Below are positions 6,655-55,042 of a stretch of 56,951 bases of DNA, one piece after another. This DNA comes from an uncultured Planctomycetia bacterium (GTDB lineage Bacteria; Omnitrophota; Gorgyraeia; Gorgyraeales; Gorgyraeaceae), in assembly GCA_964566255.1 (NCBI GenBank), contig CAZMID010000007.1:1-56951 (forward strand), in the 5' to 3' direction. A program made the translations under genes and the position numbers. Under the pieces are notes generated by a model. The model did not search any database, was not told the DNA's origin, and saw only the letters and a list, made by a program, of their open reading frames with translations. How positions within the stretch are numbered: the first letter of the stretch is position 1; each line of letters starts with the position of its first letter.

Positions 6655-7254
6655 GTGAATATTGCTATATTCTGTTCAGGAAGCGGAACAAACTTACAAG
6701 CTATAATAGATGCTAAAAAATCTGGCACTATAAAAGGCGAAATAAAACTTGTCGTCTCAGACGTTCCGACTTGTTTTGCATTAAAAAGGGCAGAAAAAGC
6801 TAATATTAAAACCTTGGTGGTTGAAAGAAAGGATTTTAAATCAAAAAAGGAATTTGAAAACGAAATCTTAACTAATCTAAAAAAAGAAAATATAGATTTA
6901 ATAGCTCTTGCTGGTTATATGAGGATACTCTCAGGAGATCTTATAAATGCATATAAGAATAAGATTTTGAATATACATCCTGCACTTCTGCCTTCTTTTA
7001 AGGGAGCGCAAGGAATAAAGGATGCATTTTCAAGCGGAGTTAAGGTAACAGGACCTACAGTACATTTTGTGACAGAAGATATGGATGCCGGCCCTATAAT
7101 ATTACAATCTCCAGTTGTAATAAAAGAGGATGACACAGAAGAAACACTCACCGAGCGCATACATAAGGAAGAACATAAAATGTACCCAAAGGCTATACAG
7201 TTATTTATAGAAGGAAAGATTAAGCTAGAAGGGTCTAGGGTAAGGATTTTATAG
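6655..7254 (+). CDS. purN: phosphoribosylglycinamide formyltransferase
   Basis: 199 aa, GTG start after AGGAGG; GSGTNLQAII, NIHPALLPSFKG, DAGPII motifs. Confidence 0.9.
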   Translation: MNIAIFCSGSGTNLQAIIDAKKSGTIKGEIKLVVSDVPTCFALKRAEKANIKTLVVERKDFKSKKEFENEILTNLKKENIDLIALAGYMRILSGDLINAYKNKILNIHPALLPSFKGAQGIKDAFSSGVKVTGPTVHFVTEDMDAGPIILQSPVVIKEDDTEETLTERIHKEEHKMYPKAIQLFIEGKIKLEGSRVRIL

Positions 7255-42405: not shown

Positions 42406-42941
42406 GAGAAGATATTATTTTTGCAGGGTTTGGGGGACAAGGCATAATGCTTATGGGAAAGGTTTTTTCTTACGCTGCAATGAAAAAAGATTTGTTTGTA
42501 ACATGGATGCCTTCATATGGTGCAGAAGTAAGAGGCGGTACAGCTCACTCGATGGTTGTTATATCAGATTCACCTATCGCTTCTCCGGTTGTAAGAGAGC
42601 CGAGTATATGTGTAGTAATGAATAAGCCATCTTTAAATAAGTTCGAGAATAAAGTTAGAAAGAATGGTCTTTTAGTTATAAATAAATCTCTTGTAGAAGT
42701 TAATCCATCGAGAAGTGATATAGATATTTTAGAAATTCCAGTAACAGATATGGCATCTACCCTTGGAAATTCTCGTATTGCCAATATGATTGCACTAGGT
42801 GCAGTTTTAGCAAAGAGGAATATTTTAGAAGTTCAAACTTTAATAGATTCCTTAAAAGATGTGATCTCAAAGAGTCGTAAGAATATGATACCCATAAATG
42901 AAGATGCAATAAAGAAAGGTTATGAGTATGGTTCGTGTTAG
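42402..42941 (+). CDS. korC: 2-oxoacid:ferredoxin oxidoreductase gamma subunit
   Basis: 179 aa; FAGFGGQGIMLMGK, YGAEVRGG. Confidence 0.8.
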   Translation: MREDIIFAGFGGQGIMLMGKVFSYAAMKKDLFVTWMPSYGAEVRGGTAHSMVVISDSPIASPVVREPSICVVMNKPSLNKFENKVRKNGLLVINKSLVEVNPSRSDIDILEIPVTDMASTLGNSRIANMIALGAVLAKRNILEVQTLIDSLKDVISKSRKNMIPINEDAIKKGYEYGSC

Positions 42942-44187
42942 ATTTGCACCAAGTCCGACAGGTAGTTTACACATAGGAAGCGTAAGGACTGCGCTTTTTA
43001 ACTGGTTGTATGCAAGAAATCAATCCGGGAAATTCATTTTAAGAATAGAAGATACGGATAAAAAACGTTCAAGTGAAGAGCATCTAAAAGAGATCACCTC
43101 AAGCCTTAAGTGGCTTGGTTTAAATTGGGATGAAGGTCCATACTTTCAAAGTAAACGTCAAAAGATATATTTATCTTATGCAGAAAAGTTAGTTACACAA
43201 GGTGTAGCTTATAAAGATGGCGAGGCAGTTATATTTAAGGTGCCTGCTGAAAAAGTAAAGATGTATGACCTTGTTCACGGAGAGATAGAAGTAGATAATA
43301 CCCTTATAGGGGAACTTGTTTTAATAAAGTCAGATAAGACTCCCGCATATAACTTTGCATGTGTTATTGATGATATTGATATGAAGATATCGCATGTTAT
43401 AAGAGGGGATGATCATATCTCAAATACAAATAAACAGATCGCTTTATATAATGCTTTATCTGTAAAACCACCAAAGTTTGTTCATATTCCATTGATACTT
43501 GGGCCAAATAAAGCTCCTCTTTCTAAAAGATTTGGGGCAGTTTCAATTGCTGAATATAAGGAAAAAGGATATTTGCCAGAAGCAATGGTAAATTATCTAT
43601 CTCTTTTAGGCTGGGCGCCAGGAGATAATAAGGAATTTATGGAGATTAAAGAAATAATAAAGAAATTTTCTATAAAACGTATAAATAAAAGAGGCGCAGA
43701 GTTTGATGAGAATAAGTTGCGTTGGATAAATGGAGAACATATAAGAAAATTAGATGTAAATAAATTTATAGAAATAGCAAAGAATTTTGTAGACGGTAAA
43801 TTTCCAAAAGGATGGTTTGAAAAATTCTCTAAACTTTACCATGGAAGGGTAAAGACTTTAGTCGAATTCAAAAATGAACTTGATATATTTATAAAGGAAG
43901 ACGTGATTTACGATAAAGAAGCGCAAGAGAAGTTTTTAAACAAAAAAGAAACTTTTGATATGTTAAAATTGGTCAAAGGTAGATTTAATAAATTAAAAGA
44001 CTTTACACCTGAAGCGATAGAAGCTGAAGCAAGATCTATTATAGAAGAATTAAACCTTAAAGGTGCAGATTTAATACATCCTTTAAGAGTAGCTGTAACA
44101 GGAAAAAGTGTATCAGCTGGAATATTTGAAGTATTAGCTCTTTTAGGAAAAGAAAAAACTATAAAAAGACTAGAGAAGATTATATAA
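42922..44187 (+). CDS. gltX: glutamyl-tRNA synthetase (compact, 421 aa)
   Basis: RFAPSPTGSLHIGSVRTALFNW (HIGH), PLSKRFG (KMSKS-like), C-terminal HPLRVAVTGK...LGKEKTIKRLE; 20-nt overlap with korC (or start at ATG 42928). Confidence 0.9.
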   Translation: MSMVRVRFAPSPTGSLHIGSVRTALFNWLYARNQSGKFILRIEDTDKKRSSEEHLKEITSSLKWLGLNWDEGPYFQSKRQKIYLSYAEKLVTQGVAYKDGEAVIFKVPAEKVKMYDLVHGEIEVDNTLIGELVLIKSDKTPAYNFACVIDDIDMKISHVIRGDDHISNTNKQIALYNALSVKPPKFVHIPLILGPNKAPLSKRFGAVSIAEYKEKGYLPEAMVNYLSLLGWAPGDNKEFMEIKEIIKKFSIKRINKRGAEFDENKLRWINGEHIRKLDVNKFIEIAKNFVDGKFPKGWFEKFSKLYHGRVKTLVEFKNELDIFIKEDVIYDKEAQEKFLNKKETFDMLKLVKGRFNKLKDFTPEAIEAEARSIIEELNLKGADLIHPLRVAVTGKSVSAGIFEVLALLGKEKTIKRLEKII

Positions 44188-44203: not shown

Positions 44204-45004
44204 ATGTTGATGTGTCCAATATGCAGTGAAAAATTTAAAAAGCTAACAGGATCACACTTTAGATATAAACATCATTTAAGTAATACTGAGTTTGTAAAAA
44301 GATACCCTAATGTTGATAGAGGTATGATTCCTTGGAATATAGATAAGACAAAGCTCACCCACCCTAGTGTATTGAAAATATCAAAGACTATGGCAGCGAA
44401 GCCAATATCGAATTTTGCTAATTGGCATAAATTGAGAAAACAATCATCGAATTATAATATAAAAAAGTCTAAAAATCTTGCTGAGTTAATAGGTATTATT
44501 TTAGGAGATGGATCTATGCAGAGATTTCCAAGAACCGAAAGACTTGTTATTACTTGTAATGCTTCCGAAAAGCAATATGTTAAACATATATACAATTTGA
44601 TTAAAAAGGTATTTTCTAAAAATCCCTCATTAACTGTTAGAAAGCGAGAAAAGGCTATTGATATATCTTTGTATCAATGTAATATCAGCAATAGATTAGA
44701 GATACCTTTTGGTAATAAGATTAGAAATGCCGTTAGTATTCCTGAGTGGATATATAAGACTAAAATATACACAATAGCTTGCCTGAAAGGTTTATTTGAA
44801 ACAGACGGTTGTTTTCAAAGAGATGATAGTAACTATGCACAATATATAGAGGTTAAGAGTTATTGTAAACAATTAAGAAAAGATATCTACAAGAGTCTTT
44901 TATTGTTAGGATATAATCCTCAATTAGGCAAAAAATATGTAAGACTTGCAAGGAGAGATGAAGTCCATAGGTTTAAAAAATCTATAAAATTCAGAGAATA
45001 TTAA
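44204..45004 (+). CDS. free-standing double-motif LAGLIDADG homing-endonuclease-like protein with N-terminal CCHH zinc-finger-like motif
   Basis: 266 aa; motif 1 LAELIGIILGDGSM, motif 2 IACLKGLFETDGCF; N-terminus CPICSEKFKKLTGSHFRYKHH. Confidence 0.7.
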   Translation: MLMCPICSEKFKKLTGSHFRYKHHLSNTEFVKRYPNVDRGMIPWNIDKTKLTHPSVLKISKTMAAKPISNFANWHKLRKQSSNYNIKKSKNLAELIGIILGDGSMQRFPRTERLVITCNASEKQYVKHIYNLIKKVFSKNPSLTVRKREKAIDISLYQCNISNRLEIPFGNKIRNAVSIPEWIYKTKIYTIACLKGLFETDGCFQRDDSNYAQYIEVKSYCKQLRKDIYKSLLLLGYNPQLGKKYVRLARRDEVHRFKKSIKFREY

Positions 45005-45006
45005 AT

Positions 45007-45080
45007 TGGAGGATCGTCTAATGGTAGGACCCGGGTCTCTGGAACCCGTTGTGATGGTTCGAATCCATCTCCTCCAGCCA
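45007..45080 (+). tRNA. tRNA-Gln(CTG)
   Basis: Acceptor tggagga/tcctcca, anticodon arm cgggt-ctCTGga-acccg, T arm gatgg-ttcgaat-ccatc, G73, encoded CCA. Confidence 0.85.
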
Positions 45081-52472: not shown

Positions 52473-53408
52473 ATGGCCAATATAAAAGAACTTTCAAAAC
52501 AACCGGAGCGTTTATCAGGTGGTCATAGGCTTTGCGCTGGATGCGGAGCATCTATAGTAGTGCGTCAGGTCTTAATGGGAACAAAAGATCCTGTAGTAGT
52601 TGGTGCTTCTACCGGATGCTTGGAAGTAGCAACTACCATTTATCCATATACTGCATGGAAGACACCTTTTATTCACAATGCATTTGAGAATGTTGCAGCT
52701 ACTATAAGCGGCGTTGAAACAGCTTATAGAGCCTTAAAGAAAAAAGGAAAGATTAAAAAAGAAATAAAATTCGTTGCGTTCGGTGGCGATGGCGGCACAT
52801 ATGATATAGGTATTCAGGCGCTTTCAGGAGCATTGGAAAGAGGCCATAATTTTGTGTATGTTTGTTATAATAACGAAGCTTATATGAATACTGGGACTCA
52901 GCGTTCCGGCGCTACTCCTAAAGGCGCATCTACTACGACGGCACCTTCTGGAAAGGCAAGTTATGGTAAGGCCCAATTCAGAAAGGATCTTACTGCAATA
53001 GTAGCTGCCCACAAAATTCCTTATGTAGCTCAAGGTTCAGCTTCTCATTGGAATGATCTTATTACAAAGTCAGAAAAGGCTTTTAAGGTAGATGGCCCTG
53101 CATTTTTAAATGTAATTTCCATGTGTCACAGGGGATGGAGATTTCCTCAGGAAAGAACCATAGAGATATCAAAATTAGCAGTTGAGACAGGATTTTGGCC
53201 TTTGATAGAAATAGAAAACGGCCAGTGGAAATTTACATATAAACCTAAACAAAGAAAACCAGTCATAGAATTCCTAAAACCCCAGGGTAGGTTTAAGCAT
53301 CTTTTTAAGGAAGAAAATAAGCATATCCTCGAAGAAATTCAGAAAGATATAGATGATAATTGGGCTCGCTTAGAACATATGTGTGAAGCGAGTTGTAAGG
53401 TTGTATAA
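52473..53408 (+). CDS. porB: pyruvate:ferredoxin oxidoreductase beta (TPP) subunit
   Basis: 311 aa; GHRLCAGCG, GGDGGTYDIGIQALSG, NNEAYMNTGTQRS. Confidence 0.82.
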   Translation: MANIKELSKQPERLSGGHRLCAGCGASIVVRQVLMGTKDPVVVGASTGCLEVATTIYPYTAWKTPFIHNAFENVAATISGVETAYRALKKKGKIKKEIKFVAFGGDGGTYDIGIQALSGALERGHNFVYVCYNNEAYMNTGTQRSGATPKGASTTTAPSGKASYGKAQFRKDLTAIVAAHKIPYVAQGSASHWNDLITKSEKAFKVDGPAFLNVISMCHRGWRFPQERTIEISKLAVETGFWPLIEIENGQWKFTYKPKQRKPVIEFLKPQGRFKHLFKEENKHILEEIQKDIDDNWARLEHMCEASCKVV

Positions 53409-53419
53409 AAATATAGCGT

Positions 53420-53691
53420 TCCCCTGTAGCTCAGTTGGTAGAGCGCGTGGCTGTAAGTTAGCAGCCTCTAGAGGAAACTCTAGAGTGGAAAAGCGTGTAA
53501 ATTCAGGGAAAGCCCAGAATGCTGGGTCAATCCTGAGCCAAGCCCATGAATATGCTGGGAAGGTGCAGAGACTAGACACACGCTGCCTAAAACCAGAAAT
53601 GGTTATGGCAAAGGTATAGTCCGACTCTCCGAGTAATCGGAGTCAGATCGTAACCACGTTGTCCGAGGTTCGAGTCCTCGCGGGGGAGCCA
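53420..53691 (+). tRNA. tRNA-Asn(GTT) interrupted by a group I intron (exon 1 53420-53454, exon 2 53651-53691)
   Basis: Joined exons give a 76-nt cloverleaf: tcccctg / gctc-agttggta-gagc / cgtgg-ctGTTaa-ccacg / ttgtc / cgagg-ttcgagt-cctcg / cggggga-G-CCA. U1-A72 and G73 as in E. coli tRNA-Asn. Confidence 0.85.
53455..53650 (+). ncRNA. group I intron (196 nt, IC3-like, no ORF) in the tRNA-Asn anticodon loop
   Basis: Guide sequence gtta-gcagcc (53457-53466) pairs with exon 2 taac (P10) and exon 1 ggctgt (P1, terminal U.G). P2 tctagag-GAAA-ctctaga; P3 agcgtgt (53492-98)/acacgct (53578-84). Core strings gtaaattcagggaaagcc, gagccaagc and gaaggtgcagagactagac closely match the Azoarcus/cyanobacterial tRNA introns as I remember them. 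Terminal G at 53650. Confidence 0.85.
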
Positions 53692-55042
53692 AGTTGAACG
53701 ACGCCTCATCAAAAGTGGGGCGTTTTTCTTTTAAAGTGTATCTTGAAATATCAGTGGTCGGGTGGGGGCGACCACTGATATTTTCTGTGAAATCTTTTTC
53801 TTCGAAACTCCTTTTATAATATAGTGTTATAAAAATCTCTTCTTTTGAGTAAATAATCTTTTTTATAAAATTTTTTACCCAGATATTTCTGTCTATTCCT
53901 TTTCTTTCATAAAGGCCTTTTACAAAGAGGCGGAGGGTTTGCTCGAAAATTTCTGCTGAAATTTTCGGGGACTCGACTGAAAGTTCGAGTCCTATGCGGT
54001 CACCCAAGTCTGAATTATTGAGCTTGAAGACCAAACTATCAATGTAGTGCTTATCGGCGGAGATTCTTTCTAAGTTTTGGAATATGTAGTTCTCTAATCT
54101 ATTAGCATTTATCTGTTTTATATTACAGCTATTCCAATTTTCTTTAAATGTTTTTGTACAGCGATAATAGTAGTAGTGTTTAGTTCTCCCTTTTCTTTTT
54201 TTGTTAGTATGGCACGGGGTCATATATGAGCCACATTCTTTACAATGTAGAAGGCTGGCTAGAGAATATTCTTTATATATTCTCATTTTACGGTATTTTT
54301 CTTTATGCATTTCTTGAGTTTGATTAAAAGCTTCCTCTGATATAATTGCTTCATGATTTCCTTGATATATTTTATCTATATATTTAATTTTTCCAGTGTA
54401 TATGATGTTTCTTAGGATATAAGCGATTCTGCTTTTTGATACACCTGTTTCTTTATAGATTTTAAAGATAGAGCCATGCTGTAAATAGGAGTCATAAATT
54501 TGTTTTACAATTTTTACCTCATTTTCATTAAAGGACAATTTTTTATTTTCTACTTTATACCCAAAAGGCACAAGCCCGCCATTCCACATACCTTTGCTGG
54601 CTCTTTCAAGCATTTTGTCTTTAGTTCTTTCACTTGCAAGTTCTCGTTCAAACTGCGCAAATGTGAGCATAATATTGCGTAAGAGCCTGCCTGATGGGGT
54701 AGAGGTATCAAATCTTTCGGTAACGGATATAAAATTCACCCCATGTTTATCAAATAATTCAATAAGCTGATAAAAATCTTTAGGAGATCTTGTAAGACGG
54801 TCTATCTTATAGGAAATAATCAGATTGATTTTATGTTCTTTTATGTCATTAAGTAATTCTTGTAAGGCAGGCCGATTAAGGTTGGCACCAGTAAAGCCAG
54901 GGTCACAATAAACCTTAAAAACCTTCATATCTTCCTGACTTTTAATAAAGGACCTGATTTTTGCCTCTTGCGCTTCGCATGAATTAAACTCTACTTCTGC
55001 CTGATTATCCGTACTTACCCTTACATAAATAGCACAGTTCAT
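53603..55042 (-). CDS. large serine recombinase (resolvase/invertase catalytic domain + recombinase domain + zinc ribbon)
   Basis: 479-aa ORF; CAIYVRVSTDNQ (nucleophile Ser), KIDRLTRS, FAQFERELASERT, GGLVPFGY, zinc ribbon CKECGSYMTPC...YYYYRCTK; GGAGG RBS. The last roughly 95 codons are encoded by IR-L, the terminator, tRNA exon 2 and the intron 3' end. Confidence 0.88.
   Translation of the reverse strand: MNCAIYVRVSTDNQAEVEFNSCEAQEAKIRSFIKSQEDMKVFKVYCDPGFTGANLNRPALQELLNDIKEHKINLIISYKIDRLTRSPKDFYQLIELFDKHGVNFISVTERFDTSTPSGRLLRNIMLTFAQFERELASERTKDKMLERASKGMWNGGLVPFGYKVENKKLSFNENEVKIVKQIYDSYLQHGSIFKIYKETGVSKSRIAYILRNIIYTGKIKYIDKIYQGNHEAIISEEAFNQTQEMHKEKYRKMRIYKEYSLASLLHCKECGSYMTPCHTNKKRKGRTKHYYYYRCTKTFKENWNSCNIKQINANRLENYIFQNLERISADKHYIDSLVFKLNNSDLGDRIGLELSVESPKISAEIFEQTLRLFVKGLYERKGIDRNIWVKNFIKKIIYSKEEIFITLYYKRSFEEKDFTENISGRPHPTTDISRYTLKEKRPTFDEASFNLAPPRGLEPRTTWLRSDSDYSESRTIPLP
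53701..53732 (+). terminator. rho-independent terminator of tRNA-Asn (inside left repeat arm)
   Basis: acgcctca-tcaaaag-tggggcgt followed by ttttctttt. Confidence 0.7.
53746..53783. repeat. 38-bp palindrome in IR-L (15-bp arms, 8-nt asymmetric spacer ggtggggg): candidate recombinase site
   Basis: aaatatcagtggtcg-ggtggggg-cgaccactgatattt. Confidence 0.6.

Follow-up and report, generated by a model that had tools for sequence, protein, structure and literature searches.

A split tRNA-Asn gene downstream of porB

We analyzed a 56,951-nucleotide stretch of bacterial chromosome (contig CAZMID010000007.1; "the window" denotes this whole stretch), in which a group I intron of 196 nucleotides (nt) separates nt 35 from nt 36 of a tRNA-Asn(GUU) gene on the forward strand (53420-53691). 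The gene starts 11 nt past an oxidoreductase beta-subunit gene ("porB", 52473-53408). Exon 1 (53420-53454, +) comprises nt 1-35 of the tRNA and ends in ...CGTGGCTGT (as RNA, ...CGTGG-CUGU), so that its last four bases are C32, U33, G34, and U35. The intron (53455-53650, +) starts with AAGTTAGCAGCC (RNA form, AAGUUAGCAGCC) and ends in ...CAGATCG (CAGAUCG as RNA). Exon 2 (53651-53691, +) starts with TAACCACG (UAA-CCACG as RNA) and extends from U36, through the discriminator base G73, to an encoded CCA, its last bases.

When the two exons were joined, they formed a 76-nt cloverleaf that ARAGORN called tRNA-Asn(gtt). The joined molecule has the features of a bacterial tRNA-Asn, with the GUU anticodon in a 7-nt loop, a U1-A72 pair, G73, and an encoded CCA. 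Applied to the native DNA in intron mode, ARAGORN returned tRNA-Asn(gtt) i(36,196), with boundaries that agree with ours. The split gene was detected in the native DNA neither by default ARAGORN nor by the Rfam tRNA model. The register 53454/53650 is the sole option within the anticodon loop that has both a U at position -1 and a G at the last intron position (omega). An initial annotation of this DNA had proposed these boundaries, the 196-nt length, and the spliced 76-nt tRNA-Asn(GUU), all of which proved correct to the base.

To place the exons among their relatives, we use L-numbers for loci from our genome, metagenome, and viral-contig scans, with L238-L357 denoting loci from the genome scan. 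Exon 1 is identical to its orthologues in L298, L318, and L350 and to intron-less alleles, and exon 2 differs at no position from the uninterrupted tRNA-Asn genes found at the orthologous locus.

The intron has the core of a group I ribozyme

The Rfam Intron_gpI model (RF00028), which has a gathering score of 50 bits, matched 53445-53643 over its full length (model positions 1-253) with 86.5 bits (E=1e-20). This match is far beyond chance. Like the intron-aware ARAGORN run and the survey of related tRNA-Asn genes described below, the Rfam search had been suggested by the initial annotation.

We mapped the helices of the intron and examined their covariation in an alignment (A2) of 14 related introns, containing 59 base pairs and 808 pair cells. 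At the 5′ end, P1 is formed by GGCUGU of exon 1 (53449-53454, +) and the guide GCAGCC (53461-53466), and a wobble between U35 and G53461 marks the 5′ splice site. This U·G pair is present in 14/14 relatives. The adjoining guide bases GUUA (53457-53460, +) pair with UAAC (53651-53654) at the start of exon 2 to form P10, in which 96% of the cells are paired across the 14 sequences. The last intron nucleotide, G53650 (+), is the omega-G, and a G is kept at this position in all Asn-split loci among the matches listed from the genome scan. The contiguous P10 and P1 strands, the wobble, and the terminal G had been noted at the outset, and helix mapping in the 14 relatives bears them out.

The remaining helices, all on the forward strand, follow the order of a group I intron. 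P2 is a hairpin (53467-53473 with 53478-53484; UCUAGAG-GAAA-CUCUAGA) in which 7/7 pairs have changed on both sides among relatives. P3 (AGCGUGU, 53492-53498, with ACACGCU, 53578-53584) covaries at 3/7 pairs and also occurs in the minimum free energy (MFE) fold. P4 (53503-53508 with 53531-53536) is invariant in 14/14 sequences and encloses P5 (53512-53516 with 53523-53527), which covaries; both match the Rfam alignment. P6 (53537-53539 with 53562-53564) was identified by helix mapping in the 14-sequence alignment, and P6a (53543-53546 with 53556-53559) covaries among relatives, with insertions of variable length in its loop. P7 (G(A)GACUA, 53568-53574, with UAGUCC, 53617-53622) contains a bulged A53569 and is the pseudoknotted, guanosine-binding helix; its 6/6 pairs are unchanged in 14/14 sequences. 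P8 consists of a basal stem (GCC, 53585-53587, with GGC, 53607-53609), which becomes ACC/GGU in relatives, and the hairpin AACCA-GAAA-UGGUU (53591-53595 with 53600-53604). P9 (53627-53632 with 53637-53642; CUCCGA-GUAA-UCGGAG) covaries at 4/6 pairs, and 100% of its cells are paired. The initial annotation had listed P2, P3, and two GNRA-capped hairpins; all are present, and the two hairpins are P8 and P9.

Across the 14 introns, 95.5% of the 808 cells contain standard pairs, compared to 32-45% when the pairing partners are slid by 1-3 columns. Changes on both sides occur at 25 of the 59 pairs, compared to 3-8 pairs after sliding, and none of 500 column shuffles reached the observed covariation score. 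The covarying helices are P2, P3, P5, P6a, P8, and P9, and the invariant ones are P1, P4, P7, and P10. Invariance is expected of P1 and P10, which are fixed by the tRNA exons, and of P4 and P7, which form the catalytic centre. The MFE fold (-72.8 kcal/mol, z=-4.5) independently gives P1, P2, P3, P4, P5, P6, P8, and P9. The paired structure, which passed both the sliding and the shuffle controls, has the group I core topology, with P3 surrounding P4-P5-P6 and the P7 pseudoknot flanking P3′ and P8. Everything that a group I ribozyme requires in sequence and structure is in place and under purifying selection.

Within group I, the presence of P2, the simple P5 hairpin without P5abc, and the absence of P7.1/7.2 are those of subgroup IC3, a placement made by inspection of the helix inventory and of core strings shared with IC3 seeds rather than with a formal subgroup classifier. 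The same inventory and strings uphold the earlier description of the core as of the Azoarcus and cyanobacterial type. As had also been noted, the 196-nt window copy contains no credible ORF (open reading frame), and no homing endonuclease is encoded within it.

Relatives carry HNH-bearing, ORF-less, and intron-less alleles

The gene order tadA-dnaX-recR-porGDAB-tRNA is kept in L298, L318, and L350, with 70-91% amino acid (aa) identity. In all three, the tRNA-Asn exons are 100% identical to those of the window and the insertion site is the same. The introns differ in length. Those of L298 (550 nt) and L350 (541 nt) have an ORF in the P1 loop, the 254-nt intron of L318 holds only a remnant hairpin there, and the P1 loop is minimal in the introns of L255 (~190 nt) and the window (196 nt). 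L255 is a complete "Candidatus Omnitrophota" chromosome in which a porB that is 79% identical is followed by the same split tRNA. As Omnitrophota are members of the Planctomycetes-Verrucomicrobia-Chlamydiae (PVC) group, this fits the "Planctomycetia" label of L298, and the host of the window intron is probably an Omnitrophota-like bacterium.

The ORF in the P1 loop (L1), which is present in L298, L350, L263, L315, L089, L286, and L323, encodes an HNH protein. The intron with this ORF is also found in a contig from IMG/VR (L089) and in Omnitrophota- or "Planctomycetia"-labelled genomes (L263 and L315). The ORF has a TTG start codon behind AAAGGAGGTGA, a strong ribosome-binding site, and its product contains the motif CxxC...CANCHRE(L/I)H. 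It matches PHROG 2255, "HNH endonuclease", with E values of 3e-27 to 4e-30, and has a weak match to Pfam HNH. In L298, L350, L263, and L089, the frame remains open through the guide, P2, and the ribozyme core and stops at a TAG within P7′; conservation of the protein is confined to the first ~95 residues. Judged from these sequences, the window intron belongs to a lineage whose fuller members have an HNH homing-endonuclease gene in the P1 loop. It is an ORF-less derivative and, because the HNH ORF is wholly lost, probably no longer mobile by itself.

We sought intron-less alleles by scanning metagenomes for the ligated-exon sequence. Six loci (L361, L362, L366, L367, L368, and L371) contain an uninterrupted tRNA-Asn gene with no mismatches to the predicted spliced product of the window, and each of these genes directly follows a porB orthologue with 81-92% identity. 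The survey of related tRNA-Asn genes therefore yielded intron-less alleles at the orthologous locus of other, equally related organisms. They are orthologous alleles rather than a second copy shown to lie in the genome of the window, and so do not refute the split gene. On a porB tree, alleles with HNH-bearing introns, ORF-less introns, and no intron interleave within a clade of 88-92% identity. Such a pattern would be expected of a homing intron that cycles through invasion, endonuclease loss, and intron loss. The intron has probably been passed down vertically, at a conserved position directly after the oxidoreductase beta-subunit gene.

Two loci have an additional tRNA fragment. In L089 (494-822, +) and L368 (720-1083, -), a decayed tRNA 5′ half (nt 1 to ~30-33) lies upstream of a complete tRNA-Asn. 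A small insert interrupts this half at nt 20/21, and an ORF of ~86-88 aa with a GIY-YIG domain (Pfam, E 3e-15 to 7e-15) follows the half. The arrangement resembles an endonuclease cassette that carried in its own substitute for the 5′ half.

The split gene is predicted to be functional

We consider it very probable that 53420-53691 is a functional tRNA-Asn(GUU) gene, whose transcript carries a 196-nt IC3-like ribozyme at U35/U36 that has lost its ORF, is probably immobile, and has been inherited vertically. In such a transcript, the guide GCAGCC would pair with the exon sequence GGCUGU to form P1, bringing the U35·G wobble to the 5′ splice site. By standard group I chemistry, an external guanosine bound in P7 would attack at U35·G. 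G53650 would next occupy the guanosine site of P7, GUUA would align the UAAC of exon 2 in P10, and the freed 3′-OH of U35 would ligate the exons to give a normal 76-nt tRNA-Asn.

Alternatively, the ribozyme may have lost activity after losing its endonuclease, leaving a dead relic within a tRNA pseudogene while another tRNA-Asn serves the cell. The lack of an ORF and the intron-less alleles of related organisms would fit a relic, as would a metagenome contig with the same flanking gene that breaks inside exon 1, which could mean a second copy or allele. However, all catalytic-core helices are intact, with P4, P7, P1, and P10 invariant in the 14 relatives and the other changes compensatory, and the exons are 100% identical to uninterrupted orthologues that look functional. 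Moreover, the Rfam score of 86.5 bits is on par with those of the ORF-bearing relatives (82-89 bits). For these reasons, we regard a relic as very unlikely.

Several points weigh against a functional, vertically inherited gene in an Omnitrophota-like host. Catalysis is deduced from conservation, and the analysis covered 57 kb of the genome, such that a further tRNA-Asn gene may exist elsewhere. A sigma-70-like promoter was not found in the 11 nt that separate porB from the tRNA. The placement of the host relies on labelled metagenome-assembled genomes (MAGs), as porB is 79% identical to that of the Omnitrophota chromosome and the closer MAGs are labelled "Planctomycetia". Finally, the porB tree is a neighbour-joining tree of a single gene, without support values.

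The genomic setting includes a serine recombinase and a LAGLIDADG gene

The window is a stretch of low-GC bacterial chromosome (~35% G+C) and contains genes for Rnf, purine synthesis, DXS, GluRS, DnaX, RecR, and 2-oxoacid:ferredoxin oxidoreductase. It does not come from a phage; the region had no megablast match among phage genomes, and a more distant blastn search against phage gave only short core-motif matches in phage introns. Just 3′ of the tRNA lies a terminator-like hairpin (53700-53724, +), with a T-run that extends to 53734. The same locus is present, and identical, in two metagenome contigs. One of them, L001, in which the flanking genes are identical, ends within exon 1 (6948-6977), six bases before the intron site. 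Such an end could arise if the sample contains a mixture of alleles with and without the intron, or a tRNA that is repeated.

Convergent to the tRNA is a large serine recombinase ORF (53603-55042, -), which encodes 479 aa with the Pfam domains Resolvase, Recombinase, and Zn_ribbon_recom. Its frame has no stop within its own element, and its 3′ tail reads on in antisense across a hairpin at 53748-53781, whose loop GGGTGGGG is conserved, and then across the terminator of the tRNA, exon 2, and 48 nt of the intron. As exon 2 is free of stop codons in all three antisense frames, the overlap between recombinase and tRNA may be incidental. A 57%-identical recombinase has the same layout beside an intron-less tRNA-Asn in L364, and a 27%-identical one is arranged in the same way beside the tRNA-Asn of L089 (1416-3014, -). 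These arrangements suggest a family of integrative elements that reside at this tRNA-Asn.

One could suppose that this element imported the 3′ half of the split tRNA along with the intron, if not the whole split gene, such that the gene is not a resident of the chromosome. The overlap of the recombinase ORF with exon 2 and the intron, and the repeated adjacency of tRNA and recombinase in L089 and L364, are the observations in favor. However, L298, L318, and L350 have the intron at the porB-tRNA locus with no recombinase match in the 0.5-1.3 kb of downstream flank, and the recombinase of L364 adjoins a tRNA-Asn that has no intron. Intron and element therefore occur independently, and we judge import by the element to be extremely improbable. 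The serine recombinase ORF is no part of intron function.

The initial annotation had also pointed to a free-standing LAGLIDADG gene 9 kb upstream. The gene is real; a two-domain LAGLIDADG ORF at 44204-45004 (+) matches Pfam LAGLIDADG_3 (E=8.6e-10). It lies between gltX (42922-44187) and tRNA-Gln(CUG) (45007-45080) and ends 2 nt before the latter. Its relevance to the intron was not supported, as the relatives carry their own HNH ORF in the P1 loop. If the LAGLIDADG protein acted in trans, the intron could still be mobile, and the presence of a two-domain ORF in the window speaks for this. However, every ORF-bearing member of the intron lineage encodes an HNH protein within the P1 loop, and the position of the LAGLIDADG ORF between gltX and tRNA-Gln provides no link to tRNA-Asn. 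Mobilization in trans is thus extremely improbable, and a resident, probably immobile intron in a functional tRNA-Asn gene is the reading that we carry forward.

A candidate D-loop intron in relatives

In some relatives, the anticodon loop of this tRNA-Asn gene is intact, and an insert of 315-333 nt separates nt 20 from nt 21 in the D-loop. These inserts occupy L363:232-548 (+), L369:225-539 (-), and L365:1117-1449 (-), with L370 identical to L365; the L369 insert is at the orthologous porB locus. The inserts can be drawn as group I introns, with P1 formed by GUCGGU/GCCGAC and containing a U20·G pair, P3 enclosing P4-P5-P6, a P7 of G(A)GACUA/UAGUCC, P8, P9, P9a, P9b, and a terminal G. The predicted spliced junction is ...CAGUCGGU|AGAGCG.... 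Across the three sequences, 98.9% of pair cells are paired, compared to 34-51% after sliding, and eight pairs change on both sides. RNAalifold on its own predicted the same nested helices.

Profile searches speak against this layout. With the whole D-loop-split loci, Rfam returned nothing at the gathering score or at E<=1, and with the insert alone, the best score was 15.2 bits (E=0.18). An nhmmer profile of 27 bacterial tRNA introns did not match the insert, and its exon-intron junction was not found in the viral-contig scan. In our literature search, no published group I intron at nt 20/21 of a bacterial tRNA turned up. We propose tentatively, with somewhat more doubt than conviction, that the tRNA-Asn of this clade may be a multi-site target of mobile elements and that, in some close relatives, the D-loop may house a second group I intron that is highly divergent. 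In that case, group I introns of bacterial tRNAs would also occur outside the anticodon loop, and current intron-aware tRNA finders, which search the anticodon loop only, would miss those in the D-loop.

A c-di-GMP-I (cyclic di-GMP) riboswitch (L363:1358-1437, +; Rfam, 55.8 bits) lies ~0.8 kb downstream of the D-loop-split tRNA-Asn of L363 and is probably unrelated.

The intron is a member of a known and widespread class

The initial annotation had suggested that an Asn host and a 35/36 insertion site might be unreported, which is not the case. A 2020 catalogue expanded the four classical types of bacterial tRNA intron to 21, and its seed alignment contains "Pam37.Asn.4Ug", an intron in tRNA-Asn at site 4 (nt 35/36) with U-1 and omega-G (Williams, 2020, bioRxiv, doi 10.1101/2020.01.27.920355). 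The window intron has the same attributes, as it interrupts tRNA-Asn between the fourth and fifth anticodon-loop nucleotides (35/36), with a U at -1 and an omega-G. The Asn.4Ug class was defined by computation only (doi 10.1101/2020.01.27.920355), and our literature search found no peer-reviewed description of it or experiment on it.

We scanned 185,579 species-representative genomes with a pattern built around P7′, the 3′ splice junction, and exon 2. Among the 120 matches listed, 87 are tRNA-Asn genes split at CUGU|...G|UAA, so that genomes of different species contain at least 87 of them. Among the matches listed, these 87 Asn-split loci have U1 in 85/87 cases and G73 in 87/87, and the host labels include Patescibacteria (Saccharibacteria, Parcubacteria, and others), Omnitrophota, Binatia, Cyanobacteria (Microcoleus, Phormidium, Floridaenema, and Hormoscilla), and Acidobacteriota (Pyrinomonadaceae and Blastocatellia), as well as others. 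When 18 of the genome-scan loci were sampled, 14 matched Intron_gpI above the gathering score. As the class was catalogued in 2020 and occurs at at least 87 loci among the matches listed, it is known and common; the window intron is a new member, notable only as compact and ORF-less, and would not surprise a specialist familiar with the 2020 catalogue.

Two loci from MAGs labelled Pacearchaeota (L242) and Woesearchaeota (L284) contain a bacterial-type tRNA-Asn with this intron, which in L284 scores 91 bits in Rfam. Either these are mis-binned contigs or the class also occurs in DPANN archaea; mis-binning was suspected in a similar case (doi 10.1101/2020.01.27.920355).

The class is easily lost or misnamed in annotation. 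Since the window gene escapes both default ARAGORN and the Rfam tRNA model, and tRNAscan-SE 2.0 is by its own statement not designed for group I introns (PMC8450103), MAGs of Omnitrophota and Patescibacteria can appear to lack tRNA-Asn. In intron mode, ARAGORN labels most of the tRNA-Asn genes in this class as tRNA-Thr(UGU/CGU) (among the matches listed, L238-L357), because introns that start with G and end in GUG allow an alternative split two bases upstream. For the genome-scan loci, we reassigned the isotypes by a rule that combines stem pairing with U1 and G73, and the latter two bases point to Asn for the loci named tRNA-Thr.

The locus provides a clean natural series of HNH-bearing, ORF-less, minimal, and intron-less alleles for the homing-endonuclease life cycle in a tRNA gene. 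In addition, the ribozyme, at 196 nt, matches the small size of the Azoarcus model intron and could serve as a useful minimal system.

Comparison with known tRNA introns

Pairwise identity to 13 published seeds was uninformative as a lineage marker, as all values were ~70-80%. The exon-1 pattern TAGYTCAGTYGGTAGARCNNNNNNCTGTV, designed for introns of all kinds that follow nt 35, returned so many ordinary tRNA-Tyr(GTA) genes that it was dropped. A core-plus-P9 pattern was too unspecific for use on the genomes, with 115 viral matches that were mostly outside tRNAs.

The closest counterpart by host and site is Pam37.Asn.4Ug, which shares with the window intron the host tRNA-Asn(GUU), the 35/36 site, the U at -1, the omega-G, and the guide motif UAGCAGCC. 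However, Pam37 is longer, at 276 nt in the alignment (counted from the 5′ strand of P1 through omega-G), and contains additional P2.1-like and P7.1/7.2-like inserts, whereas the window intron is compact, at 196 nt. As their identity, ~75% over aligned columns, is no higher than that to seeds from other tRNAs, the window intron and Pam37 may represent different sub-lineages at one site.

The Azoarcus pre-tRNA-Ile(CAU) intron (IC3) is likewise small, ORF-less, and located in an anticodon loop, with P1, P2, P3-P8, P4-P6, P7, and a short P9, and with GNRA loops on P2 and P9. The core strings that the initial annotation had likened to those of Azoarcus and cyanobacterial introns are indeed shared; GAGCCAAGC is identical in Azoarcus and in the Synechococcus tRNA-Leu seed, and GAAGGUGCAGAGACUAGAC is identical in Synechococcus and one base off in Azoarcus, where GAAGGUG(U/C)AGAGACUAGAC differs by one base. 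The Azoarcus intron differs in its host, tRNA-Ile, in its site after nt 36 or 37 rather than 35/36, and in details of P5, P6, and P8. It has been characterized experimentally and structurally, whereas the window intron is known from sequence alone.

Cyanobacterial and plastid tRNA-Leu(UAA) introns resemble the window intron in CAAUCCUGAGCCAAGC and GAAGGUGCAGAGACUAGAC, both identical in the Synechococcus seed, and in their patchy distribution among relatives. They differ in their 34/35 site and longer P9 region, and they lack the AUAGUCCGAC / short GNRA-capped P9 signature that is common to the window lineage.

The Synechocystis tRNA-fMet intron and its endonuclease exemplify a bacterial tRNA group I lineage in which only some members have a homing-endonuclease ORF. 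Compared to that system, the enzyme of the window lineage is an HNH protein encoded in the P1 loop, in a frame that is open through the ribozyme core, and the window copy is a member that lacks it.

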